Counted from the stretch's first letter, positions 13,130 through 26,561 are shown. The stretch: DNA of 64,000 nucleotides from an uncultured Gammaproteobacteria bacterium (GCA_964411255.1 CAYPKD010000001.1:7331-71330); one strand, 5' to 3'. Made by a program: numbers and translations. Notes: generated by a model from the sequence alone, not told the origin.

Positions 13130-13226
13130 ATTTTTTTATTTTATACTTATACTCATTATATCAGATTAAATAACAAAACAAAAAAGCCCGCAAGCGGACT
13201 ATACCTTTTAATGGCCTGCCATCAAG

Positions 13227-13793
13227 CTATCTTAATATTTTAACAATTCCCACTAAAGCATCCCTTTTGTTTTCCGGGTCTTTAAACTTATATAAACACT
13301 CTTTTAATTCTGGTTTTATATCTTTTGCCTTTGAACTTATTTTTGTAGCTCTTTCTAATTTTGTTGCATCGTAAATAATTAAAATATCAATCTTCACCCT
13401 GTATCCTCGATCTAACAATACATTTTCATAAAATTTCTTAACTGTATATCCAAATAAAGAAGTATGTTCGTAAGAGCTATCCAAGATTATTTTATGTTTT
13501 TTTATTTCAAATAATCCTGCCTGAATATCATGATCATACATACTAAATCCCTGATGACATACTTCCTTTCTGTCTGGGTCGTATTTATCTGTCCCTAATT
13601 TTAATATGACTGATGTAAGTTCGTTTATAGAAAGCTTGGGATGATCGTCTTTTCCTATTGCTCTATAAATATAATTTCCGTCAGGTAAATTACTCTCTAT
13701 TTCCTTGTCAACTTTTTTTCCTATTTTAAAATAATCCGGTTTATTTTTAATATGATATTCCGGAACATGAACTTCAATTATTTTTACTGCCAT
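13227..13793 (-). CDS. Hypothetical protein (188 aa)
   Basis: ORF only. Confidence 0.45.
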   Translation of the reverse strand: MAVKIIEVHVPEYHIKNKPDYFKIGKKVDKEIESNLPDGNYIYRAIGKDDHPKLSINELTSVILKLGTDKYDPDRKEVCHQGFSMYDHDIQAGLFEIKKHKIILDSSYEHTSLFGYTVKKFYENVLLDRGYRVKIDILIIYDATKLERATKISSKAKDIKPELKECLYKFKDPENKRDALVGIVKILR

Positions 13794-13813
13794 AACATTT
13801 TCATAACTAATAA

Positions 13814-13858
13814 TGGAGCCAACGAGCGGACTTGAACCGCTGACCTACTCCTTACCAT
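13814..13858 (-). pseudogene. 3' half of split tRNA-Thr(GGT) (anticodon loop to CCA); island right junction
   Basis: Reverse strand reads ATGGTAAGGAGTAGGTCAGCGGTTCAAGTCCGCTCGTTGGCTCCA; complements the 5' half at 25887..25924. Confidence 0.8.
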
Positions 13859-14024
13859 AAAACAACCCAACTACAAAACAACATAATTCACCTAAAGTAA
13901 GAGTAAAACCTTAACAATCTTACTCTTACAGGTGATTGCTTGGATGACCTGTTTACTACGGCTCTTTGCTCAGTTAGTATTACAATACTGCAATACTTAA
14001 TTTTTATGTTTTAAGCATAACATA

Positions 14025-14969
14025 TCAAATTAAATTTTCAAAGGTCAGTTTATTTGCCTTTGCTTTCATTACGTGAGTAGGTCTACAGCGAAGGTATATT
14101 GATGTCATTTTAATCCCCTTATGCCCTAGTATTTGTTGCAACTCTGAAATATCATAACCTTGATTTATACAATTCATGGCGAACGTATGACGAAACATAT
14201 GGGCATGAAATTTAACACCAGATTCATCATTTAATCTCTTTATCATATGTTTCACTCCATCTTTTGTGAATCTTGAATTATGAGTAGAAGAGATGAAAAA
14301 ATATGGAGAAGTATTCTTAGTTTTTTTCCTCTCTTCTAAATAATCCTTTAATATCTGGAATAATTTAAGATTCATATTAACTATTCTATCATGACCTGTT
14401 TTTGAGGTTTCACCCCTGACAAACACCTCCATTCTATCAAAATCAATATCATCAAGACGTAAACTCACTAATTCATTAAGTCTTAAACCGCAAAAAAGAA
14501 AAGTAGCTACTATGGCATAATTACGTTTTCGCAATAAACTATTCTTCCAATCAATATTGATTAAAACTGCTGAAATAATTTTATCAATATCATCTTTCTT
14601 AATAAATTTTTTATCTAGATACTCAACCTTAGGTGCTTTTATGTACATAAAAGGATTATGGTCAATATATTTTCTTATCCTTAACCAATCAAAAAACCGA
14701 CTCAGTTTACTTCGATAAGTAGCAATCGTACTATTCTTTACTCCGACTTTAATTCCACCCTTTCCTACTAGTCTTTTACGTTTTTGTAAATGTTCAAAAA
14801 ATATATTCATAACCTCAGGTGTTATCTTATCTAAAGATAAATTCGGTATGAGTTCACTTAAAAGCTTAAAAGATGATTCATACCCTCTTATAGTAACTTC
14901 TGAAAGTCCCAAAGAATAACGCGATTCTCTGACAAACTCCTCAAAAAGCTCATTAAGATTCTTTTTCAT
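14025..14969 (-). CDS. Tyrosine recombinase / phage-type integrase
   Basis: C-terminal HxxR...Y motifs (FRHTFAMNCINQGYDISELQQILGHKGIKMTSIYL); next to right junction. Confidence 0.85.
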   Translation of the reverse strand: MKKNLNELFEEFVRESRYSLGLSEVTIRGYESSFKLLSELIPNLSLDKITPEVMNIFFEHLQKRKRLVGKGGIKVGVKNSTIATYRSKLSRFFDWLRIRKYIDHNPFMYIKAPKVEYLDKKFIKKDDIDKIISAVLINIDWKNSLLRKRNYAIVATFLFCGLRLNELVSLRLDDIDFDRMEVFVRGETSKTGHDRIVNMNLKLFQILKDYLEERKKTKNTSPYFFISSTHNSRFTKDGVKHMIKRLNDESGVKFHAHMFRHTFAMNCINQGYDISELQQILGHKGIKMTSIYLRCRPTHVMKAKANKLTFENLI

Positions 14970-15579
14970 TGCTCTCAGTTTCTTGATTTTCTTCTATTTT
15001 CTTTGTTTTAGCAATTATTTGGTCAATTACATCTGATATTTCACTCCTATCTTCTTCGCTCATTTCGTCCAATTGCTCGCTTGCTTTGTCCCACATTGAA
15101 TTTTCATTTCTACTTTTTAACCAATCAGTGATTAAAGTTATTTTGCTAAAATTGTGTTGTCCCATATCCCATCCATTAAAAGACGCATAGTCCTTAAGCA
15201 TCTTCATCAAAATCTTTAAGGCTTTCTCCTTCTCGCCTTTGACCCAAGATTTTGCAATATTTTTCTCACTAATTAAATCTGTCATCTGCTCAATCGTTGT
15301 TTCCATCTGCGCGCCCAGTATCCCGCGCAAGCTTAAGGTATCCTCTATATCCTTTAAGTTATTTGGCTGGTTCTCCTTGTAATAAGAAGAAATGTCCCGC
15401 TCAACTGTGCGAAGAGTTACCTCACCCCAGCCACGATGTTCAGCCATAGTATTTAATCTTTTTTTGACGGTTTCATTAGAAAAACCATTTAATTTAAGCA
15501 TTATCGTGGTATCACGACGTGCTCTTAGCAGAGATGCAGGAATTGATTTCCTGCCTGTTGTCTTTTTGACTTCTGTCAT
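14953..15579 (-). CDS. Hypothetical island protein (208 aa), overlaps integrase start
   Basis: ORF only; acidic C-terminus. Confidence 0.45.
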   Translation of the reverse strand: MTEVKKTTGRKSIPASLLRARRDTTIMLKLNGFSNETVKKRLNTMAEHRGWGEVTLRTVERDISSYYKENQPNNLKDIEDTLSLRGILGAQMETTIEQMTDLISEKNIAKSWVKGEKEKALKILMKMLKDYASFNGWDMGQHNFSKITLITDWLKSRNENSMWDKASEQLDEMSEEDRSEISDVIDQIIAKTKKIEENQETESNEKES

Positions 15580-15851
15580 ACTTTTTTAAGTTAATTTTTA
15601 AATACCGGCGTTTACGACATTCTCTAAATACAAAAAAACACAGAACGGCGATTACAACCGGGCAAAATACAAAAAATTGTATTTTTAGTTTGCCCTAGAT
15701 GGTTATAGTCAAAATTCTGTGCTTTTAAATTAAGCTGTTGGGACTATGTATGTTCTAGTACTTAGATTGTTAATGTATATTTAAATGGTAATATCAATTC
15801 TTAATCATGTCAATACCCCATGTTGATAAGAGTTAACAAAGTTGAAAAAGT

Positions 15852-16610
15852 TTATTTTTCTGTCTTTGTATTTCTAGAATCTACATAACTACAATAATCA
15901 CATTCTGAACCGGCTTTTGGAATTTTCTTACTTCTCAAAGTTTTATGTATATCTTTAATAGTCTGCTCAAGCCATTTATCGCTACCCTTATACGGAATCA
16001 ATACTATTTCAAATTCTAATTTTGCATCAAACGCTTCTCTATCTTTACGGCCATTGCAATAAACAAAATAACCCATATTTGATACTTTCAAGCCATTCAT
16101 CCTTAATAACCACTGATAAATCTCCATTTGCCTTTTATAGCCATCCATCCAAGGCTTATCAAGTTTAGTAACTGGTTCTTGCTTACTGGTGGCCTTATAG
16201 TCAACGACTATGTACTTACCTTTTGAATCCTGCCATAAATCATCAATTGCTCCTGTAATAATAAAATTAGTTGGTTCATGTAAATACTGAACACCCTTAA
16301 AATTTTCTCGCCAAACATCAAGATTATCATGAGCCACTGGTTTTGCATCAACCTTATACTTCTTTAATAATGGATGTTGTTTATTTTTACTTCTATGTTC
16401 ATCGAATTCTTTCTTTAGTAATTCATCAACTGTAGAATTCAATGCAAATGGAAATCCCGGTGGTCTGCCAACTCCCAATTTTCTATCAAGATAAAAACAT
16501 CTTGGACAATCCAAAAACAAATCTATCTTTGAACGAGATATCTTAAACGGCTTTTTTGACTTTGGGTCGTAAAGATTTTTTGTTCGTTGTGAATTGTAAT
16601 ATTGGGACAT
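15852..16610 (-). CDS. PD-(D/E)XK nuclease, Cas4/RecB-like, with Cys clusters
   Basis: GAIDDL ... VVDYK ... QMEIYQW (D-EXK-QxxxY) plus N-terminal DCPRC and C-terminal ECDYC cysteines. Confidence 0.55.
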   Translation of the reverse strand: MSQYYNSQRTKNLYDPKSKKPFKISRSKIDLFLDCPRCFYLDRKLGVGRPPGFPFALNSTVDELLKKEFDEHRSKNKQHPLLKKYKVDAKPVAHDNLDVWRENFKGVQYLHEPTNFIITGAIDDLWQDSKGKYIVVDYKATSKQEPVTKLDKPWMDGYKRQMEIYQWLLRMNGLKVSNMGYFVYCNGRKDREAFDAKLEFEIVLIPYKGSDKWLEQTIKDIHKTLRSKKIPKAGSECDYCSYVDSRNTKTEK

Positions 16611-16614
16611 ATTA

Positions 16615-17463
16615 TTATTGTCTTTCGTTTTTATCTAATGTATTACCCTCTTCATCTTTCCATTCTTTCCACCCATTAGCACGACGTGCAAGAATAACAG
16701 CGGCAGCAGCACTAGGACTATTAAAAATATAGTTCTTTACAAATTTGTAAGAATCCTCGCCTTCTTTTTCTATTACTCCATCCGCTAATAATCTCTCCAC
16801 CATTCCCTCAACCCAAGTACCAGCAGTTTTTGTTAGCTTTCTTCTTGTTATGGAGTCACTATACACAACTAATCCCTCATCTGAATATTTCCCTTTAGCT
16901 TTTGCTGATGGGCCTTTGCAGTAATAAATCTTTTCAGATTCATCAATAATATTAATATCATCAAAAATCGGATATCCTAAAGTAGCTACCAAAAGCTCAA
17001 TACTTCCAAAAAAATCCATAACATCAGCCACATCAGTTTCTGGTAGTTGTGTTTTTGCCGGAATAGTACCATTTACAACATTACATCGATTTAATTTCTG
17101 AGCAATATCATAACAATACCCTTCTAAATATTTCACGTGGGCTTTATTAATTGAGTTATTTGTACTAACAAAACACAATGCAATATTCCAAAAATCTTTA
17201 CCTTCATCTTTGTTATGCTGTAATAATCTTTTATACACCTGTTCTGCCTCTCCAATGTATACATCGGGAATATTTGAATCAATTTCTTTTCCTATCAGAA
17301 AATAAAGCCCAACAGTTTTTAATTCATCGCGACTTGCCGCTTCCTTAATTTTATTTCTTGGCACCAAAATTGCTTTAGCAACACGACCACCAATCTCTGC
17401 AATTTTAACACCAGAGGGGGTGCCGTCAGCTAATAAAATTTTAATTGTTTTAGGATTTTTCAT
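16615..17463 (-). CDS. GIY-YIG nuclease-like N-domain with DUF4357-like C-domain (hsd-associated)
   Basis: GLYFLIGKE...VYIGEAEQVYKRLLQH resembles GIY-YIG; abuts DUF45 gene and Cas4-like gene. Confidence 0.55.
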   Translation of the reverse strand: MKNPKTIKILLADGTPSGVKIAEIGGRVAKAILVPRNKIKEAASRDELKTVGLYFLIGKEIDSNIPDVYIGEAEQVYKRLLQHNKDEGKDFWNIALCFVSTNNSINKAHVKYLEGYCYDIAQKLNRCNVVNGTIPAKTQLPETDVADVMDFFGSIELLVATLGYPIFDDINIIDESEKIYYCKGPSAKAKGKYSDEGLVVYSDSITRRKLTKTAGTWVEGMVERLLADGVIEKEGEDSYKFVKNYIFNSPSAAAAVILARRANGWKEWKDEEGNTLDKNERQ

Positions 17464-17464
17464 A

Positions 17465-17785
17465 TTAATTTATACAATATTTATTTAATCTCAATTCTAA
17501 CTTTTCATATTCACCTAAATACGACGACATTCTGCTTTTCCATAATTTACTATGATTCGGGGTATGAAAATGAAGTAATTCATGAACGATCACATACTCT
17601 CCCAAATCTCGCTCAATTTCTAGGAGCTCAACGTTAAAATTCAGATTTCCATTAGTTGAGCAAGAAGCCCATTTATTTTTCATTGGACGCAAATACAAGC
17701 ACCTTATTTTAATGCCAATCTTATCAGCAAAAAAATAGACACGCTCTTTGAATTCAGCTTTATTTGTCCAACAATTAGATATCAT
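17465..17785 (-). CDS. DUF45/M48-like metal-dependent hydrolase, short (106 aa; YgjP-like, possibly truncated)
   Basis: HELLHFH (HExxH); overlaps hsdR stop, a common hsdR-adjacent partner. Confidence 0.5.
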   Translation of the reverse strand: MISNCWTNKAEFKERVYFFADKIGIKIRCLYLRPMKNKWASCSTNGNLNFNVELLEIERDLGEYVIVHELLHFHTPNHSKLWKSRMSSYLGEYEKLELRLNKYCIN

Positions 17786-20699
17786 AAGCTTTTGAAATTA
17801 GTCTAAATAATTCTTCAGCCACTTTTGTTGCCTTTTCTATATCGTCTTCTTCTGCCAGTATCGCATAATAAATCTCTGCACGAAGTTTTCTCAAAGCTTC
17901 AGTACTTTGTTTCCAAGTTTGATGCTCTACAAATGCCTCCTTAATCTTATCAGTAACAATATCTGGCTGAGGAATCTTATGTTGTTCGATTAATTGATTT
18001 ACAAAATAAGTTAAACTATCAAACCCTTTTTCTGCCTGTTTCTTTCGACGTTCAATATCTTCTTCGTATAACTTTCGAAGTTCTTCCAAGGTTTTCTTTG
18101 TTGTTAATTGCCGAGACTCATATCTTTCCTTAATTTCTTCAGCTCTTTCCAACAATGAAATCAAGAAAAGGTCATCGCTTTGTTCTTCTGCTATTTTCTC
18201 GATGGATTTTATTAAATTGATAATTCTAACATTATCATCTTCATGCTTAGCTTTAATTTTCTCGATTGATTTCTTATTAATTTCGTAAAATTCAGACTGA
18301 GTTTCCAATTTTTCCAAGCCTACATGCTTTTGAACCAGTTGATTTGTTTTTCTCTGAAATTCTCTATCAATGTAAACTTTTTTTGCATAGGCATTTCGAA
18401 CAATTCCATAGATTGCTGATAACGTGCCATAATCATCAATGTATGGTCTCAAAAAAGCATCTGGGGAGATAATCTCATAAAGCATTTCAATCTCTTTATA
18501 GAGTTTGAAAAACTTTTTACGTTTTTCTGCATCACGGAAATGCTCTATTAACTTATCTGTATCCTTATCATCAAACTTTTTAGAAACCAACTTCAAATAT
18601 GAAGCAGCCTCTTTCTTCATCTTTTTTTCAAATTGTTTTTTCAATAATCCTAAGTCTTTAACTACTGCATCTATCTCATCACTATCAAAAGCTAATGCTT
18701 TTTCAACTTTATCGAAAATTCCGATAAAATCTAATACAAAACCATGCGGTTTAAGCATATTATGTTCTTCATTCTCATAAGGCCGATTTACACGCGCAAT
18801 AGCTTGTAAAAGCGTATGATCACGCATTGGTTTATCAAGATACATTGCATACAGAATTGGTGCATCATATCCTGTTAAAAGCTTTTCTGTGACAATAAGA
18901 ATTTTGGGCTGTTCTCCATATTTAGTAAATTTCTTTCTAATCTCTCTTTCCCTTTGTTCATCATGATGAAATTCTTTTAATAATTTAGAATCATTGTTAT
19001 TACCAGTATAAACAACTTCTGAATATTCCTTTGGTAAATATTTATCTAGAGCTTTCTTGTAATATGCACAAGCTTCTCGGTCTACTGCAACAAAAAATGC
19101 TTTATAGCCTAAAGGCTCCACATTTTCTTTGAAATGTTCAGCTGCATATTTTGCCACTGCATCAATTCTTTTTTCTCCTTTTAGAAAATTTTTAATATTA
19201 ACTGCTCTTTCAAGGACTTTATTCAATTCTTCAATCTCTGTTATTCCATGAGCATCTGCAAGTTGCAAAAATTCTTCTTCCAATGTTTCTTTTGGCACTA
19301 AAAGTTTATTTGGAGCAATACTATAAAATAAGGGCAACGTAGTACCGTCTTCGATACTATCAGCAATAGAATACTTATGAAGATAACCCTTTTTATCTTC
19401 AAGACCAAATGTCTTAAATGTTCCTTTTCCATATACAGTCTTATCAATAGGTGTCCCAGTGAATCCTATAAAAGATGAGTTCGGTAATCCTGCCATTAAG
19501 AAATTCCCTAAATCACCTTGAGTAGTCCTATGCGCTTCATCAATAAGCACAAAAATATTTTCTCGAGTATTGATATCTGCAGGCATTTTCTGAAATTTGT
19601 GAATTGTCGTTACAATAATTCCTCGATAATCATCTTTAAGTAATTTATTAAGCTTTCGAATAGAAGTTGCATGTTCAACATTATTCAATCCAACCGAGCT
19701 TAAATTTGTTATCATTTGCTGCTCTAGTTCATTACGATCAATCATAAGCAAAATAGTAGGTTTATCTGATTCTGGAGCTTTGAATAATAATTCGGCGACT
19801 TTAATCATTGTATAAGTTTTTCCTGAACCTTGAGTATGCCAAACCAAACCACGTCTTTTGGTTTTATTATGAGCGCGTTTAATAACTTCTTCAACTGCCT
19901 CTTGTTGGTGTTGCCTAAGTATGTATTTATTCAACTCTTCATCTTTCTCTGCAAACATTATGTATTTACCCAACACATCCAATATCTGACGTTTATCGCA
20001 AAATGTTTTAATTTTAGATTCTAACTTACCGATTTCTTTTTCTTTCCAATTAAAAATATTCCTTCTAATTAAATTCCATGTTACCCCATAGCTAAAACCA
20101 ATACTTTCCGTTGCTGTAAATATTTGCTCTGGTACAAATAACTCAGGTGTTTCATTATGATATCGACGTAATTGGTCGATTCCAATTGCAACCGCCTCGT
20201 CCTTGGTTGCGTTTTTACATTCAATAACAAGAACTGGAATACCATTAATTAAAAAAACAACATCCTCTCTGTTAGCATACTTGCCATTAAAATAATAAAA
20301 TTCCTCAGTCACTTCAAACACATTATTACTGAACTTATCGTAATCAATCAGATTAAGATTTAATTCTCTATTCTCACCTTCGTGAAAAAATGTTTTGTCT
20401 CCTCTTAAATATTGTACAAATTCACGATTACCATAGATATCTGGAGTTAATGCTGAAAAACGACGAATAAGGTCATCAATATTATTATGAAAATGAGGAT
20501 TAAATTTATTAACTTTTTCATGAAGGATACCCTGAAAATAAAGAGAAGCAGTTTCAGCTCTGTCGCGAGGTGAAACTCCTTGGGGGTCAAAACCACGGCG
20601 TTCTTCAGCCTCTTTTTGGCCAACATACTTCCATCCAATTTCTTGGGCGTATTTAAGTATCCTAGCTTGTACTGATTTTTGCTCTGTTGGTTTAGACAT
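17775..20699 (-). CDS. hsdR: Type I restriction enzyme R subunit
   Basis: 974 aa; SF2 helicase motifs TQGSGKT, DEAH (VLIDEAHRTTQG). Confidence 0.9.
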   Translation of the reverse strand: MSKPTEQKSVQARILKYAQEIGWKYVGQKEAEERRGFDPQGVSPRDRAETASLYFQGILHEKVNKFNPHFHNNIDDLIRRFSALTPDIYGNREFVQYLRGDKTFFHEGENRELNLNLIDYDKFSNNVFEVTEEFYYFNGKYANREDVVFLINGIPVLVIECKNATKDEAVAIGIDQLRRYHNETPELFVPEQIFTATESIGFSYGVTWNLIRRNIFNWKEKEIGKLESKIKTFCDKRQILDVLGKYIMFAEKDEELNKYILRQHQQEAVEEVIKRAHNKTKRRGLVWHTQGSGKTYTMIKVAELLFKAPESDKPTILLMIDRNELEQQMITNLSSVGLNNVEHATSIRKLNKLLKDDYRGIIVTTIHKFQKMPADINTRENIFVLIDEAHRTTQGDLGNFLMAGLPNSSFIGFTGTPIDKTVYGKGTFKTFGLEDKKGYLHKYSIADSIEDGTTLPLFYSIAPNKLLVPKETLEEEFLQLADAHGITEIEELNKVLERAVNIKNFLKGEKRIDAVAKYAAEHFKENVEPLGYKAFFVAVDREACAYYKKALDKYLPKEYSEVVYTGNNNDSKLLKEFHHDEQREREIRKKFTKYGEQPKILIVTEKLLTGYDAPILYAMYLDKPMRDHTLLQAIARVNRPYENEEHNMLKPHGFVLDFIGIFDKVEKALAFDSDEIDAVVKDLGLLKKQFEKKMKKEAASYLKLVSKKFDDKDTDKLIEHFRDAEKRKKFFKLYKEIEMLYEIISPDAFLRPYIDDYGTLSAIYGIVRNAYAKKVYIDREFQRKTNQLVQKHVGLEKLETQSEFYEINKKSIEKIKAKHEDDNVRIINLIKSIEKIAEEQSDDLFLISLLERAEEIKERYESRQLTTKKTLEELRKLYEEDIERRKKQAEKGFDSLTYFVNQLIEQHKIPQPDIVTDKIKEAFVEHQTWKQSTEALRKLRAEIYYAILAEEDDIEKATKVAEELFRLISKAYDI

Positions 20700-21942
20700 A
20701 ATTATTAATATTTTGGAAATTAATCATATTAACTCTAATCTGATTACTCATAAGTTTATCTAATATAGAATCAAATAGATTCATATAGCAATTTTTCTTC
20801 GATCTTAATAAAATAAGTTTTTTATCAATTGCGCTTAAAGATTGTGAGATACTGGACTGTTCGGATTTATTTGGAAGAGGCACCTTTTGATTTTTCACAT
20901 CATTATCCCTTACAGCTGGATAACTTGCTCCTCTTTGCAAACTCCCTATGGATTTAATAAAATTTTCAGTTAACAAATATTGAAATAAAAAATTATGTTC
21001 AATTTTTTCAGGATTCACTCTGAGGACACAATAGCCAGTACTACAAACCTCATTATCTAATTCAGAAGGAATCACAGCTATTCTCTTCAGGGTGGGTCTT
21101 ACTGTAGCAAAAATTATGTCATTTTCTTGCACTTGTTTTTTTGCTCGACTTGGAGCATCTTTACCAAGAATATTGCTAGTATCTTCTATTTGAAATGATT
21201 CATTAGACACACTTGAAACATCTATGTATTTGAAAAATTCGTTGGGTTTCTTTTTGGGCTCCACATTTGATGTTTTTAATAATAAAGATTTTATTGTTAC
21301 CAAATCCCAACTCTCTGGAATGAAACCAATTTCAGTTTCTTTTTGTCTCTCTCCTTTTGTCCCTTCAGTAAATAGTTTTTGCATTAATACATTCTTAAGT
21401 TCAGTCGTTTGCGCAATAAGTTCATTCTGCATTTCAATTGATTTTTGTATTACTGACAAAATATATGCAATGTTTTTTTGTATACTACCTTCCCACAAAG
21501 GAATTTGAATATTCTTAAAATCTGATTTCTTAAAAAAACCACGAGTTGTTTCTGAATTTCTCTCGATAAATTCTTGAATTGAAGACAAGAGGTAGAAGTA
21601 TAAAAATTTAGGGTTCAACTCTTTATTCCCAGGTGTTACTTTCCACATATTTTGGTTTAATAATGCTGGTAGGATATCTCTCGGTATCATTGTCATTTTA
21701 CCTCTTGTTGCACCCACCATAACAATTAAAATATCTCCTTTATTCAATAAATACTTTGCATATTTTTTTGAAAAATCTTGAGGTAAATATTCAACATCTC
21801 CCAAATTAATTTGTCCCCCCTCCAAAATATTCACAACTCTAAAATTAAGAATACCGCTATCTACGTAGTCCTTGCTCTTGAATGCAAAACCATTTGTAAC
21901 ATCACATTCTTTTCCGATTGTACTATATTTAGTATTACTCAT
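20692..21942 (-). CDS. hsdS: Type I R-M specificity subunit
   Basis: 416 aa, two target-recognition-domain halves separated by conserved spacers; overlaps hsdM and hsdR. Confidence 0.8.
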   Translation of the reverse strand: MSNTKYSTIGKECDVTNGFAFKSKDYVDSGILNFRVVNILEGGQINLGDVEYLPQDFSKKYAKYLLNKGDILIVMVGATRGKMTMIPRDILPALLNQNMWKVTPGNKELNPKFLYFYLLSSIQEFIERNSETTRGFFKKSDFKNIQIPLWEGSIQKNIAYILSVIQKSIEMQNELIAQTTELKNVLMQKLFTEGTKGERQKETEIGFIPESWDLVTIKSLLLKTSNVEPKKKPNEFFKYIDVSSVSNESFQIEDTSNILGKDAPSRAKKQVQENDIIFATVRPTLKRIAVIPSELDNEVCSTGYCVLRVNPEKIEHNFLFQYLLTENFIKSIGSLQRGASYPAVRDNDVKNQKVPLPNKSEQSSISQSLSAIDKKLILLRSKKNCYMNLFDSILDKLMSNQIRVNMINFQNINNYV

Positions 21943-23488
21943 ATCCTAATTTAGAAAGAATCTCCGACATTTCTTTATCGATGTTTTTTGATTCTTTTTC
22001 AATTTCTTTTAATTCCAATACAATTTCTTTGATTGGTTTATGCTCAGCATCATCTGAAATATGTATGTATCGGCTTGGAGAAATATTGTAATCATTTTTA
22101 ATAATTACATCTTTATCAATAAATTCTGAAAATTTCTCGATTTCTTCAAATTTATTAAAAGTATTAGCAATTTTTTCTATTCCTTCATCAGTAATGTAAT
22201 TCTTTGGGTCACCTTTTTTGAATTCTTTAGAAGCATTTACTAAAAAAACTTTGTCTTTATGCTTTTTATTTTTATTCAAAAATAGAATAATACCTGGAGC
22301 AGTAGTATTGTAGAAAAGATTCTCTGGCAAATACAAAACACCTTCCAGTAAATCATTATCTACAAAGTAAGCTCGAGCTTCTTTTTCTTTATTTGTATTT
22401 GCATTTCCTGAACCTCGTGATGCTGCGCCTGTATCAAGTACAATTGCGGCTTTACCAGAATTATTCAAACTAGCCCAAATGTGCTGAACCCAAGCCCAAT
22501 CAGCATTACCACCTGGATTCTTTTTGAAGCGCTCAAAATGGTCATCATTGTAAAAATTATCACCCAAATACGGTAACGAATCCTTTCCTTGATTCCACAT
22601 AGGATTGGCTACCACTCTATTAAATTTCTTTAATTTCCCTTTATCGAGAAATTTAGGGCTTTTCATCGTGTCTCCTATCTCAATATCACCCTCCATGTCA
22701 TGCACAATCATATTCATTTTTGCCATTGCCCAAGTATCTCCTACAAACTCTTGTCCATACAATTTCAATGGTGCAACCTTCTTTTTTCCATTATGCTTTT
22801 GTTGCATTACAATTTGATTTTTAATAAGTAGGCCGCCGCTTCCGCAGGTTGGGTCATAAATATCCATTCCCGGCTCTGGTTCCATTATTTTTGCCATAAT
22901 CAACCCAACTTCAGTAGGGGTATAGAACTCTCCAGCACTTTGGCCGCTATTTTCTGCAAATTTTCTAATAAGATACTCATAACTTCGACCAATGATATCT
23001 GGTTCGACATCTTCCAGACCTAAACGCTTCTGGCTAATCCTTTCAATTAGATTAGACAATCTATCATCTGGAATATCTCGTTGACCATGTGTAGTTGCAT
23101 TAAAATCGACCCGGTCAATAATCCCAGATAAAGAAGGATTTTCTTTAGCAATACCTCGAAGCAAATTTGTTAACTGCTCTCCAACATTACTAGATATTTT
23201 TCGTATTGCTGACCAAACCTCATCTGTGTCTGGATTCAGTGGAATTAAAGGTAGATAATATCGAACTAATTTCCTATCTTTTTCAATTAGTGCAAAAGCC
23301 TTTCTTCTGCCTCCTACTTTCATTGCAATGCGATTTACTTCATCATCGAATACGTCACAAAGCCTTTTAACAAAAATTAGAGGCAAAATATAGTCTTTAT
23401 ACTTTGCGGCATCCTTTGCTCCACGAATAGAGCAGGCTGCATCCCATATCCATGATTCTAATGATTTTCCATTGTTATTTTTTGTCAT
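21935..23488 (-). CDS. hsdM: Type I R-M DNA methyltransferase subunit (N6-adenine)
   Basis: HsdM N-domain; motif I DPTCGSGGLL; motif IV reads NPMW rather than canonical NPPF. Confidence 0.9.
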   Translation of the reverse strand: MTKNNNGKSLESWIWDAACSIRGAKDAAKYKDYILPLIFVKRLCDVFDDEVNRIAMKVGGRRKAFALIEKDRKLVRYYLPLIPLNPDTDEVWSAIRKISSNVGEQLTNLLRGIAKENPSLSGIIDRVDFNATTHGQRDIPDDRLSNLIERISQKRLGLEDVEPDIIGRSYEYLIRKFAENSGQSAGEFYTPTEVGLIMAKIMEPEPGMDIYDPTCGSGGLLIKNQIVMQQKHNGKKKVAPLKLYGQEFVGDTWAMAKMNMIVHDMEGDIEIGDTMKSPKFLDKGKLKKFNRVVANPMWNQGKDSLPYLGDNFYNDDHFERFKKNPGGNADWAWVQHIWASLNNSGKAAIVLDTGAASRGSGNANTNKEKEARAYFVDNDLLEGVLYLPENLFYNTTAPGIILFLNKNKKHKDKVFLVNASKEFKKGDPKNYITDEGIEKIANTFNKFEEIEKFSEFIDKDVIIKNDYNISPSRYIHISDDAEHKPIKEIVLELKEIEKESKNIDKEMSEILSKLGYE

Positions 23489-23499
23489 AAAATTAAAAA

Positions 23500-23676
23500 T
23501 TAATTCTGACTCTCCTGAATAAACTTCTGGAGGTCTTTTTCACTAATTCGCCATTGACCAATCTTAGATGCCTTTAAGCGTCCTGATTCAATATACCGTG
23601 TTACAGACCTTTCGCTTACTCTAAGAATCTCTGCCACTTCTTTTAATGTTAGTAATTTTTCTTTAGTCATAAGCAT
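23500..23676 (-). CDS. Excisionase/AlpA-like helix-turn-helix DNA-binding protein (58 aa)
   Basis: Manual translation MLMTKEKLLTLKEVAEILRVSERSVTRYIESGRLKASKIGQWRISEKDLQKFIQESQN; below ORF-track size cutoff. Confidence 0.55.
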   Translation of the reverse strand: MLMTKEKLLTLKEVAEILRVSERSVTRYIESGRLKASKIGQWRISEKDLQKFIQESQN

Positions 23677-23767
23677 TTGTTATTACTAATATTGTAACTA
23701 ATTAAAAGCGATGTGTCAAAATTTGTCATGTTTTGACATATAGGTTTAATTTGAGTAAAGTAATGGT

Positions 23768-24748
23768 ATGAGCAAACAAACTACAACAAAAAGAAGTCAT
23801 TATCTTCCCAAAACTTACCTAAAGCATTTTCTTTTGGATGATGCTTTGTTTATGTATATGAAAGGGAAAAAATTTTTTGATGAAGAAAAAACACCCGCGG
23901 AAAGAATATTAAAGGTTGGGGGTGAAGATGGGCTAACAAATATTGGGTTGAAAAATAATTTGTATAATCCCGAAATTGATGGTATTTCCAGTGATGATAT
24001 GGAGGAGATATTCAGAGGATATGGGGAGGACTACTACAATGAATTGATATATGATATTAGCAAGTTAGATGACCAAGCTTTAATACCAGAAATAATAAAA
24101 TCAAAATTAGCTTATTTTCTAGCTTCAATGCGTGTACGAACACCTCAATTCAAATCAGAAACTGAAGAAATGGACACCGCATTTAGAAAGCATTTCTCTA
24201 AAAGACATTTTGAACTAATTAACCCTGAGGAAATAGTTGAAGTAAGTAAAAAAGAATTTTCTAATGAAATAAGCCTGGAAGAAGCTAATAAGATAAAGGA
24301 CTGTATTGTTAAACAAGAATATGATCTTAAATATCCCAATGGCTTTTTTATTCAAATGGCCCTTATGATGATAAATCACTATGCTGACATTTTCCATCAA
24401 ATGACTGTAAGCATAGTAAAGTCTGATGGGCGATATTTTGTAACTTCTGATAATCCAGTAGTATATTTCGTTCCTCCTGAGAAAGTAAATTTCTATCATC
24501 CCCCTAAAGCACTTGTAAGTCCATTTACAGAATTATTTTTTCCACTGACAAAAGACTTAGCGGTAACTTTAAATTGGAGAAAGAATGAAGAGCGAATAAC
24601 CAAAACATCAAGGGCAATAGTTGAGATATTTAATAATAACATTACTCACCATTCTTTCGACTTTATTTTTTCACCAATTCAAATGAAAGCACTAAACAAG
24701 TTTACAAAAGAACACATACCTTATCCATTCAAAATTAGGGTTAGCTAA
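23768..24748 (+). CDS. DUF4238-like protein
   Basis: N-terminal HYLPKTYLKHF matches the DUF4238 signature start; only plus-strand gene in island. Confidence 0.5.
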   Translation: MSKQTTTKRSHYLPKTYLKHFLLDDALFMYMKGKKFFDEEKTPAERILKVGGEDGLTNIGLKNNLYNPEIDGISSDDMEEIFRGYGEDYYNELIYDISKLDDQALIPEIIKSKLAYFLASMRVRTPQFKSETEEMDTAFRKHFSKRHFELINPEEIVEVSKKEFSNEISLEEANKIKDCIVKQEYDLKYPNGFFIQMALMMINHYADIFHQMTVSIVKSDGRYFVTSDNPVVYFVPPEKVNFYHPPKALVSPFTELFFPLTKDLAVTLNWRKNEERITKTSRAIVEIFNNNITHHSFDFIFSPIQMKALNKFTKEHIPYPFKIRVS

Positions 24749-25656
24749 TAATCATCAAGTGGATGTTTTCTAATCTGGGACCGTAAATGCTCTGCTGAAG
24801 CAGCCAGATAAATCGTCGTTGTCTTGATGTCCGCATGCCCCATCATTCTAGATAAAGAATAAATATCACATCCTCCCTCCAACATCAACGTCGCAAATGT
24901 GTGGCGTAGTTTGTGAATCGTAAACGGAATCTCTGACGAATCACGAATTTTTTCAACTAGTCTTTTAATACCTGAGTCAGCAAATCCGCAATTTCTGTTT
25001 AATGAAGCAAAAAATTCTGGGCAAGTCTTTTTCAGACGTTTGCGTTCTATTAAATATTTTTCTAAACTTTCAGCCAATTTTGAACCTATTGGTATAATTC
25101 TGTCTTTACTTCCCTTTCCCTGATAAACAAATATAGACATATTTTCTAAATCAACGTCAGATAACTTTAATTTTATCAATTCTCTTTTTCTGAGCCCAGC
25201 AAATAGAAATACTGAAAATATTGCATGATTTCTGTATCTGAGATATCGATACTTATACGGGTAGTTATAGACCACTTCCAGTAATCTATTAGCTTCTTGC
25301 CTTGATAACTTGGGAGGTAGTTTCTTTTCAAGCTTTGGGACTTCAATATCCTCTGCAAAATTTTGTTCAAGATGACCTTCTTGAACACACCACCTGAAAA
25401 ATACCAAGAGACTCTTATGATAAGTTATGAACGTGTTTGTGCTCCAATCTCTTTGAGTTCTCCCATCATAAAAAAACTTTCTGACATTGGTTTCATTTAC
25501 TTCTGATATTTTTTTTATTTCTGAAAGACTGCAATACAAATTGATACATACTCTGTATCTTTTAATTGTGTCGCCTGAATACCCCCTGATATAGCTTGAG
25601 TATTCACAAAACTGTTTGCCTAAATTTTTTATCAACATAAAAATACTGCCTTTCAA
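24745..25656 (-). CDS. Tyrosine recombinase / integrase (second)
   Basis: HKLRHTFATLMLEGGCDIYSLSRMMGHADIKTTTIYL; adjacent to island tRNA-Thr and left junction. Confidence 0.85.
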   Translation of the reverse strand: MKGSIFMLIKNLGKQFCEYSSYIRGYSGDTIKRYRVCINLYCSLSEIKKISEVNETNVRKFFYDGRTQRDWSTNTFITYHKSLLVFFRWCVQEGHLEQNFAEDIEVPKLEKKLPPKLSRQEANRLLEVVYNYPYKYRYLRYRNHAIFSVFLFAGLRKRELIKLKLSDVDLENMSIFVYQGKGSKDRIIPIGSKLAESLEKYLIERKRLKKTCPEFFASLNRNCGFADSGIKRLVEKIRDSSEIPFTIHKLRHTFATLMLEGGCDIYSLSRMMGHADIKTTTIYLAASAEHLRSQIRKHPLDDY

Positions 25657-25672
25657 TTGCAGTATTTCTAAA

Positions 25673-25748
25673 TGGAGCCGTCTTCGGGACTTGAACCCGA
25701 GACCCCCACCTTACCATGGTGGTGCTCTACCAGCTGAGCTAAGACGGC
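25673..25748 (-). tRNA. tRNA-Thr(GGT), intact, island-borne
   Basis: Reverse strand GCCGTCTTAGCTCAGCTGGTAGAGCACCACCATGGTAAGGTGGGGGTCTCGGGTTCAAGTCCCGAAGACGGCTCCA folds to canonical cloverleaf. Confidence 0.85.
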
Positions 25749-25886
25749 AAATTTGGTTTGCTGGTCAGACCTATAAAGCTTTATAAGTCGGTTAGCCGAC
25801 GACCTGTTTAGTAATAGAGATGGGGTCTATTATTAACAATTTAGCTAGTATTAGCGTAAAGAGTTAAAATTCATATGACCTGTTTA

Positions 25887-25924
25887 TTACCATGGAGTTG
25901 CTCTACCAACTGAGCTACGTTGGC
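25887..25924 (-). pseudogene. 5' half of split tRNA-Thr(GGT); island left junction
   Basis: Reverse strand GCCAACGTAGCTCAGTTGGTAGAGCAACTCCATGGTAA; acceptor GCCAACG pairs with CGTTGGC in the 3' half at 13814..13858. Confidence 0.8.
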
Positions 25925-26051
25925 TTAAATTCTGAATTATTGAAATAACTTAACATTTTATCGTAAATTCCTTTAATTTTATTCATATATTCATCATTCC
26001 CTTTTAATTCTTCAGCTTTGCTTTTTACTTTTAACGCCAAGTCTTCTGTAA

Positions 26052-26561
26052 TCAATAATTTTCCCACATCATATATTCATCTATTATTGCTATTTCTTCC
26101 TTGTCTTTATATGTATCAATAAAAATCTGATTATATTCCTTTAGTTGATCTAAACTTTCATTATTTGGTGTTTCAACATGTTTTAAATAATGTAAATAAT
26201 TTTGAATATCAAATTTTTTAAAATCAAGTATATCTTGTACCACTTTAATTGCTGCTCTTGTTATCCATAACTCAGATGATTGAAAATTCTTTTTGCTTAA
26301 TATGTCAGGGAAAATTTGCTCCATAATTATCCTTTGAATTTTGTCACAAATTAAATGTACTGCCCATCCCTTTTTAAAATCATCATCTTTATAAAAAGTT
26401 TCTTTAAGAAAATTTTTATCATGTGTTAAATTTTTATCAATCCCAGTAATATAACGGCTGTCAGGATAAATTGTCCCAGATATATATCTTTTCATTTCCT
26501 TAACATCAAACTGATCTTTTACATCCACTGCAAAACGTATGTGAGAGCATTCCAATGCCAT
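26052..26561 (-). CDS. Hypothetical protein (169 aa)
   Basis: ORF only. Confidence 0.4.
   Translation of the reverse strand: MALECSHIRFAVDVKDQFDVKEMKRYISGTIYPDSRYITGIDKNLTHDKNFLKETFYKDDDFKKGWAVHLICDKIQRIIMEQIFPDILSKKNFQSSELWITRAAIKVVQDILDFKKFDIQNYLHYLKHVETPNNESLDQLKEYNQIFIDTYKDKEEIAIIDEYMMWENY

Follow-up and report, generated by a model that had tools for sequence, protein, structure and literature searches.

A 64,000-nt stretch of DNA from an uncultured bacterium (CAYPKD010000001.1:7331-71330; hereafter the window, whose numbering is used for all coordinates) carries a 12,035-bp insert in the anticodon loop of its tRNA-Thr(GGT) gene, within the region 13,814-25,924 studied here. The insert is a real integration, because the same 76-mer is uninterrupted at the same locus of a sister species. 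The host tRNA-Thr gene is destroyed and not regenerated, and is replaced by a second, complete tRNA-Thr(GGT) carried by the insert (tRNA B); the type of the element is defined by this replacement gene. We regard the insert (13859-25886 plus one 7-bp core copy) as very probably an integrated, non-viral mobile island that breaks a tRNA gene and replaces it, a strategy termed here break-and-replace.

The split tRNA-Thr(GGT) gene and its island-borne counterpart

The native gene lies on the minus strand. Its 5′ half (25924..25887) is GCCAACGTAGCTCAGTTGGTAGAGCAACTCCATGGTAA, after which TAAACAGGTCAT comes next, and its 3′ half (13858..13814) is ATGGTAAGGAGTAGGTCAGCGGTTCAAGTCCGCTCGTTGGCTCCA, directly preceded by GGGTTGTTTT. 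The two junctions, attL and attR, are identical over exactly 7 bp, ATGGTAA, and differ in the bases on both flanks. Overlapped on this 7-mer, the halves yield a 76-nt sequence that ARAGORN called as tRNA-Thr(ggt), with all four stems Watson-Crick, and no tRNA was called by ARAGORN in either junction as it stands. A preliminary description, made from the sequence alone, had placed a split tRNA-Thr(GGT) gene at these very coordinates, with the shared heptanucleotide as crossover core in the anticodon loop, no regeneration at either junction and a tRNA recognizable upon concatenation; each of these claims held. Both junctions recur in independent Logan, JGI and ENA assemblies from several samples, and an assembly artefact was rejected on this ground.

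The empty site is provided by two sequences of the sister species (L133 and L134), which contain the homologue most similar to P0002, the upstream gene (71% identity). The locus is syntenic, with the gene order TPR gene, p215, tRNA-Thr(GGT), PGI and tRNA-Tyr, and carries an uninterrupted tRNA-Thr(GGT) that is 76/76 identical to the joined halves. BLASTN of L133 against the window gave alignments of 81-96% identity that cover 27367-25876 at the attL side, and 13858-13806 and 13203-9572 at the attR side; it revealed in L133 no counterpart of the 12 kb or of tRNA B. The preliminary description had named comparison with related genomes as a test that could refute it, and the outcome bears it out; it also held that the att sites are precisely exposed; the 7-bp core together with the empty site indeed fixes the boundaries.

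The central 27 nt of the joined tRNA were found exactly in more than 120 genomes, nearly all of them metagenome-assembled genomes (MAGs) of Patescibacteria (Candidate Phyla Radiation, CPR), and in many of these the tRNA sits just downstream of the genes for TIM and a TPR protein, as in the window. Since both the 27-nt segment and the TIM-TPR-tRNA-Thr synteny are typical of Patescibacteria MAGs, the host is assigned by these matches as a Patescibacterium, one of the ultra-small bacteria, and the split gene as the standard tRNA-Thr(GGT) sequence of this locus.

The tRNA features of the island are as follows.

25887..25924, minus strand: orphaned 5′ half of the native tRNA-Thr(GGT), positions 1-38, forming attL; core ATGGTAA at 25893..25887; identical to L133:1365-1402
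13814..13858, minus strand: displaced 3′ half of the native tRNA-Thr(GGT), forming attR; starts with the core ATGGTAA at 13858..13852; 96% match to L133:1396-1448, flank included
25673..25748, minus strand: tRNA B, intact tRNA-Thr(GGT) by ARAGORN, Rfam tRNA score 65.8 bits; absent from the empty site
25639..25664, minus strand: terminator-like hairpin TACTGC-N9-GCAGTA plus T-run, seen by eye between tRNA B and the Int1 start codon

The preliminary description did not contain tRNA B. ARAGORN called three tRNAs in the whole window, among which tRNA B is the only intact tRNA-Thr in the 64 kb. It begins 138 nt after the orphan 5′ half and ends 34 nt before the start codon of the recombinase gene Int1. 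Compared to the native tRNA-Thr(GGT), it is identical at 58 of 76 positions and has the same anticodon loop; it has U73 and an encoded CCA, runs over a continuous 76 nt with no intron, and its own acceptor and anticodon stems are internally complementary. A full replacement on the island would account for the tolerance of a non-regenerating insertion. In the integrated state the orphan 5′ half precedes tRNA B by 138 nt, and transcription from the native tRNA promoter, with subsequent processing, is therefore probable for tRNA B. A sigma-70 promoter scan round the left junction gave nothing above shuffled expectation on the relevant strand, and we therefore only infer read-through from the native promoter. 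On this reading tRNA B would be both expressed and essential. Hairpins similar to that at 25639..25664 were seen by eye in L139, L140, L188 and L135; a consensus terminator scan did not report the one in the window.

Attachment sites, recombinases and cargo

The motif AAACAGGTC occurs four times in the window (0.29 expected), with each copy on the minus strand and at one of the island ends. The attachment-site features are as follows.

25877..25886, minus strand: core-adjacent candidate recombinase site TAAACAGGTC (C′ half-site), directly after the core; same motif in 16 distinct family junctions
25795..25810, minus strand: second direct motif copy TAAACAGGTCGTCGGC (P′-arm site), just upstream of tRNA B and 66 nt beyond TAAACAGGTC
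13946..13954, minus strand: AAACAGGTC copy of the P arm; its start lies 96 nt ahead of the attR core, and an 87-nt spacer follows it
13859..13868, minus strand: left half-site on the island side, GGGTTGTTTT, which forms an imperfect inverted repeat with TAAACAGG on the other side of the core; compare L166
14393-14401, minus strand: fourth exact copy of AAACAGGTC, within the coding sequence of Int2; the P-arm copy, oriented alike, lies 447 nt downstream of it

The fourth copy could be an extra binding site or reflect a coding constraint. The other elements share this layout. In 10 of 10 elements examined, the P-arm motif stands 96 nt ahead of the core as in the window, either as a copy or with one mismatch; the core is directly followed by (T/A)AAACAGGTC in 16 distinct junctions, with another copy ~75-90 nt later before the element tRNA. 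Moreover, L137, L138, L166 and L188 each have an unrecombined attP in which Int2, the motif, a core with imperfect inverted repeat, the motif, tRNA-Thr and Int1 follow one another, the core region of L166 being CCTGTTTT-ATGGTAA-AAAACAGA. This is exactly the order predicted by joining the two ends of the window island. For the latter, the predicted attP junction is GGGTTGTTTTATGGTAATAAACAGGTCAT, and the predicted repaired attB, with the flanks of this species, is TTCAGAATTTAAGCCAACG...CTCCATGGTAAGGAGTAGG...GGCTCCATTATTAGTTATG.

Along the minus strand, the island runs from the 5′ half with the core through TAAACAGGTC, TAAACAGGTCGTCGGC, tRNA B, the hairpin, Int1, the DUF4238 gene, the HTH_17 gene, hsdM, hsdS and hsdR, and on through the YgjP-like, DUF4357 and Cas4-like genes, the gene of a 208-aa protein, Int2, AAACAGGTC and GGGTTGTTTT to the core and the 3′ half. 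Its genes are the following.

24745..25638, minus strand: Int1, 297-aa Xer-like tyrosine recombinase (Pfam), full R-K-H-R-H-Y catalytic set
23768..24748, plus strand: DUF4238 protein, cargo, on the opposite strand to the rest
23500..23670, minus strand: 56-aa HTH_17 excisionase-like gene (Pfam; PHROG excisionase families, 6e-12), the candidate Xis
21935-23488, minus strand: hsdM (PF02384/PF12161)
20692-21942, minus strand: hsdS (PF01420), two target-recognition domains; PADLOC Specificity_I
17775-20699, minus strand: hsdR (PF04313/PF18766/PF22679)
17465-17785, minus strand: YgjP-like gene, cargo
16615-17463, minus strand: DUF4357, PADLOC PDC-S14 (4e-98), cargo
15852-16610, minus strand: PD-(D/E)XK Cas4-like nuclease, cargo
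14953-15579, minus strand: 208-aa protein without family assignment, cargo
14025..14969, minus strand: Int2, 314-aa Xer-like tyrosine recombinase (Pfam), full catalytic set, 33% identical to Int1

Int1 and Int2 both match PF00589 (1e-30 to 1e-37) with all catalytic residues kept. They are two-domain proteins whose only N-domain is SAM-like. In NCBIfam they match Xer families best, but do not reach the cut-offs: the XerC/XerD scores are 140-177 bits against cut-offs of 330-335, and the XerA cut-off is not reached either. An identity as housekeeping XerC/XerD was rejected, as both proteins fall below the equivalog cut-offs and both genes lie inside an insert absent from L133. The genes for HsdM, HsdS and HsdR in one operon (17775..23488, minus strand) constitute a Type I restriction-modification (R-M) system, followed by a block of further cargo (14953..17785, minus strand), so that the payload consists of Type I R-M plus candidate defence genes. 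Pfam and gene calls thus agree with the ~12-kb island of the preliminary description, with its two tyrosine recombinases, Xis-like HTH gene and Type I R-M operon.

Searches against Pfam and PHROGs revealed no phage structural, lysis or repressor genes in the island; the PHROGs matches are restricted to the integrases, the excisionase-like gene, two families of unknown function and weak nuclease families (the Cas4-like cargo). IMG/VR contains no Int1 relative above 35% identity. A viral origin was rejected on both grounds, the lack of virion, lysis and repressor genes and the best IMG/VR match of Int1 at 35%.

Both neighbours of the split tRNA have peculiarities of their own. The gene upstream (25915-26561, minus strand) is an orthologue of a conserved ~215-aa protein of Patescibacteria and is frameshifted at an A-run, with residues 1-167 in one frame and 168-215 in another; all independent assemblies give the same 169-aa product. 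In the intact orthologue of L133, the stop codon TAG falls inside the tRNA gene. On the other side, the p188 gene (13227-13793, minus strand; 188 aa) is the sole gene between the tRNA 3′ end and a terminator hairpin (interval 13204-13811); in L133 this hairpin directly follows the tRNA, with no p188 in between. Homologues of p188, 60-76% identical, occur across Patescibacteria in unrelated contexts (after pheT, after recA), and no family match was found in Pfam, NCBIfam, PHROGs or PADLOC. As these are housekeeping contexts, we rejected the idea that p188 belongs to the island or remains from an earlier island.

A family of related elements

Database search revealed 2868 homologues of Int1, of which the best 120 are 65-73% identical to it (top ~70%). 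Int1 sequences share 72-73% identity where the TIM proteins of the hosts share only 38-39%, which points to horizontal spread. In the first four Int1 contexts inspected (L135-L138), a tRNA-Thr(GGT) lies just upstream of the recombinase in four of four. L135/L136, from another Patescibacterium, has an element at the same TIM-TPR locus with different cargo: its native 5′ half (GCCCACG...) runs through ATGGTAA directly into TAAACAGGTC, followed by the second motif, an intact tRNA-Thr and Int1.

Scanning metagenomes with an alignment of Int1 added 80 further loci. Among them are five further complete elements whose halves rejoin to an ARAGORN-valid tRNA-Thr, namely L139 (8,460 bp), L140 (7,350 bp), L141 (8,204 bp), L148/149 (3,733 bp) and L159 (2,884 bp). 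Int1 at the left and Int2 at the right are found in four of the five; L159, the smallest element, has no detectable Int2. The related island in L140 also contains a LOOT RNA (L140:1929-2048; Rfam RF03000, 83.9 bits against a gathering threshold of 46.4), ~0.5 kb downstream of Int1.

Some members of the Int1 family carry a tRNA-Lys, or only a tRNA 3′ half, in place of a tRNA resembling tRNA B. In the tRNA-Lys(TTT) branch, the attP contains the 3′ half (L165:9600-10000) and the integrated copy has a regenerated tRNA (L170:9700-10000), which is the classical solution. In L170 the regenerated tRNA-Lys is followed by GAACAGGTC-type repeats and Int1; L169, L173, L178 and L180 are further cases. Since this branch of the same Int1 family regenerates its tRNA, break-and-replace and classical regeneration are evolutionary neighbours.

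The module of Int2, intact attP, tRNA (where present) and Int1 is found unrecombined in L137:8489-13332 and L138:8633-13350, and also, for example, in L165, L172, L206, L211 and L218; one such locus lies in a 5.18-Mb circular genome. In L137 and L138 the module adjoins a Replic_Relax gene and a third, unrelated tyrosine recombinase. A search of the family contigs for terminal overlaps, as in circular contigs, found none.

The locus L148:9410-13400 is nested. A first 5′ half (GCCGTTG...) is followed by a 70-nt remnant, a second 5′ half (GCCCGGG...) and the 3.7-kb element with an intron-bearing tRNA, and on the right side by the second 3′ half and then a 3′ remnant of the first tRNA. This arrangement suggests that one element after another has replaced the tRNA-Thr gene, and shows that intron-less replacement tRNAs can be hit again. 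In L150, L155 and L170, fragments consisting of the first 10-11 nt of a tRNA are joined to related 12-18-nt sequences (GTTTTGGTAGGTCGTTA in L155 and L170, GTCTTGGTAGGCCTG in L150), just upstream of the targeted tRNA and ~450-500 nt upstream of Int1. Such fragments may be scars left by elements of a different type, with a cutting site in the D-arm.

An intervening sequence of 190-230 nt after ATGGT (36/37) interrupts the tRNA-Thr(GGT) of the element, situated ~300 nt upstream of the Int1 homologue, in 22 distinct relatives (L139, L140, L146-L148, L150, L155, L158, L161, L166, L167, L174, L179, L183, L185, L188, L191, L202, L204, L205, L210 and L213). The base at -1 is U, and the intron ends in G, in all intron-bearing tRNAs. 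A fold of the group I type (P1-P9, including the P3/P7 pseudoknot) was drawn and counted on 20 intron sequences: 93.2% of cells are paired (slid controls, 32-48%), compensatory change is seen in 36 of 56 pairs, and none of 500 shuffles reached the observed value. P4 and P7 are invariant, as is the U.G pair at the splice site. Rfam Intron_gpI did not match the intron-bearing relatives at gathering threshold or at E<=10, and the group I assignment therefore rests on our own structure and covariation counts. At the DNA level, the intron splits the crossover core between ATGGT and AA. We therefore propose that it may render the replacement gene refractory to the integrase and so protect it. In the window, tRNA B has no such intron.

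Proposed mechanism, alternatives and relation to known systems

In the proposed mechanism, the circular form of the island would present Int2, AAACAGGTC at -96, the core (TGTTTT-ATGGTAA-TAAACAGG), AAACAGGTC, tRNA-Thr(GGT), Int1 and the cargo in this order. Int1 and/or Int2 would pair the attP core with the DNA of the host anticodon stem-loop, CC-ATGGTAA-GG, a natural inverted repeat, and strands would be exchanged within the 7-bp ATGGTAA. Because homology stops at these 7 bp, all that attP would share with the tRNA, neither junction rebuilds the host gene, and the host would be left with two dead halves while the complete tRNA-Thr(GGT) of the island substitutes for them. The HTH_17 Xis-like protein is the candidate for excision directionality, and precise excision would restore the host gene. 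The roles given to each recombinase, and the mobility of the island today, are presumptive.

Several observations weigh against this reading. No empty site and no excised circle were found in this species; exact-protein look-ups of both flanking genes revealed the island in every contig that carries them. The Logan contigs L008 (SRR6963311) and L009 (SRR14699967) end exactly after ...CTCCATGGTAA, at the last core base, which fits a de Bruijn graph branch at the junction and could reflect a subpopulation with the empty site or a co-occurring sister species with an identical tRNA; as the sister species would give the same branch, these ends were not counted as evidence for excision. An attP that is intact and embedded in a long contig is present at about 20 family loci; a simple model of integration and excision does not account for these. 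tRNA B retains the apparent target CC-ATGGTAA-GG, and the model leaves the lack of recombination between attL and tRNA B unexplained. The analysis covers 64 kb of the genome, and another tRNA-Thr(GGT) may lie elsewhere, which would weaken the case that tRNA B is needed. The recombinases are Xer-sized and have no lambda-type arm-binding domain that would read the AAACAGGTC "arm" repeats. Finally, the island has no transfer or replication genes that would account for its movement between cells.

Some of these observations would also fit an island that integrated as proposed and is now a fixed, immobile fossil, with recombinases kept for another role or not yet decayed. We hold this to be possible, albeit rather unlikely. 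The occupied state in all contigs from at least six samples, the failure to recover an attP or attB junction from this species, and an island GC content of 31-34%, no different from the flanks, all speak in its favor. By contrast, the two recombinases and the Xis-like gene are intact, as are the four copies of the motif, and the core is perfectly duplicated. Activity of the family over evolutionary time is clear from nested insertions and from other hosts in which the same site holds different cargo.

Elements often accrete in tandem at tRNA genes, and the 12 kb might be a composite of two elements, each with its own integrase, in which Int2 has nothing to do with the module of Int1 and the tRNA. 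The nested events in L148 and the identity of only 33% between Int1 and Int2 are in line with this, but the window has no internal att junction and no extra tRNA fragment, four other complete elements down to 3.7 kb have the same pair with Int1 at the left and Int2 at the right, and Int2 lies directly upstream of the core in unrecombined attP modules, all of which led us to reject a composite as improbable. It is hardly credible, and was rejected, that the native gene is tRNA B, with a conventional island beside it contributing the halves as decoys or pseudo-tRNA fragments: although tRNA B is intact and near the boundary, and tRNA fragments at island flanks are common, this is already contradicted by the sister species, which has the joined sequence (76/76) at the locus with no tRNA B; the split tRNA also has an anticodon arm typical of Patescibacteria, and in the Int1 loci inspected a tRNA resembling tRNA B, when present, sits directly upstream of Int1. 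Tyrosine recombinases beside Type I R-M loci often shuffle hsdS, as is generally known, yet an hsdS shufflon (phase-variable Type I R-M) or a local inversion system was rejected as very improbable here, given one hsdS only, no long inverted repeats between hsdS segments, family members with entirely different cargo, and recombinases that flank att sites and not hsdS.

Break-and-replace integration has its closest counterpart in tRNA-dependent lysogeny, described for actinobacteriophages including Fionnbharth (Subcluster K4) and Cluster L (Guerrero-Bustamante & Hatfull, mBio 2024, PMC10865867). There, a tyrosine integrase uses a ~10-bp core in a tRNA gene with no tRNA rebuilt, and lysogens survive only with a phage tRNA of that isotype, which makes up for the loss, as shown experimentally; the Lactobacillus johnsonii prophage Lj965 is given as one likely case outside Actinobacteria, and the authors ask how widespread the phenomenon is. 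The three sequence-level hallmarks are all found in the island: a tyrosine recombinase with a very short core (7 bp, compared to 10 bp in the phages), no junction that rebuilds the tRNA, and an element-borne tRNA (25673-25748). Repeated sites flank the attP core in both systems. The island differs in being neither a phage nor equipped with a lambda-type Int: a Xer-sized recombinase at each end takes the place of a single lambda-like Int with its arm-binding domain. Its host is a Patescibacterium and its target tRNA-Thr(GGT), not tRNA-Lys(TTT). The replacement tRNA adjoins attP as part of the attP module, whereas that of the phages lies elsewhere in the genome, and many island relatives have a group-I-like intron. 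The requirement for the tRNA is shown for the phages and presumptive for the island.

Classical tRNA/tmRNA-gene islands and prophages, P22-type integration in the tRNA-Thr anticodon loop among them, share with the island a tyrosine recombinase acting in a tRNA gene, an anticodon-loop crossover with a symmetric stem, an integrase at the edge, and cargo. By the Islander/TIGER definition (PMC4383910), a classical island restores the split gene at one junction, through the tRNA segment that it carries, and leaves the displaced fragment at the other. The window island, in contrast, regenerates the gene at neither junction and shares only 7 bp with it.

TnpA/TnpB of Tn554 and XerC/XerD at dif are two-recombinase systems of simple Xer-like architecture. 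Similar to these, the island encodes two distinct Xer-like tyrosine recombinases together, presumably both needed at one site. It differs in that its recombinases fall below the NCBIfam Xer cut-offs, are absent from the empty site and target a tRNA anticodon loop, and any cooperation between them is presumptive.

Group I introns in tRNA genes of Patescibacteria have been reported (mSystems 2026, PMC13011429; tFind, bioRxiv 10.1101/2020.01.27.920355). Table 1 of PMC13011429 lists Thr(GGU) 36/37 calls by ARAGORN/tFind in three Patescibacteria genomes, introns that the Infernal protocol of that study missed. The island relatives likewise carry a tRNA-Thr(GGU) interrupted at 36/37, while tRNA B in the window is intron-less; these reports draw no link between introns and integrases or islands, and PMC13011429 does not contain the words "integrase", "recombinase" or "island". 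The literature searched, whose coverage is incomplete and gives no proof of absence, contains no paper that links these recombinases, tRNA-Thr and islands of Patescibacteria.

We thus describe a break-and-replace integrative defence island that belongs to a large, undescribed family in Patescibacteria. Break-and-replace at tRNA genes was recognised only in 2024, and has so far been shown only for a few phages (of Actinobacteria); the same logic now appears in a non-viral defence island of a CPR bacterium with thousands of metagenome relatives. As a conjecture that we hold only tentatively and would not expect to stand in full, these are very widespread, Patescibacteria-centred tRNA-swapping islands, in which a heteromeric pair of Xer-like recombinases reads the anticodon stem-loop DNA of tRNA-Thr(GGT), permanent tRNA replacement acts as an addiction device by making imprecise loss lethal, tRNA-Thr genes turn over serially, as nested in L148, and in many members a self-splicing group I intron between ATGGT and AA blocks recombination by the element itself and by rivals. 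If true, this would give a tRNA intron a function in DNA-level immunity; protection of the gene from integrases is a concrete function for tRNA group I introns that this family allows to be tested.

The 7-bp core, the arm repeats and the two small recombinases make a compact candidate tool for site-specific integration in intractable bacteria. Patescibacteria have minimal genomes with usually single-copy tRNA genes, and an element that swaps an essential tRNA for its own copy would be hard to lose. Such islands could be a major route by which Patescibacteria acquire restriction and defence genes.

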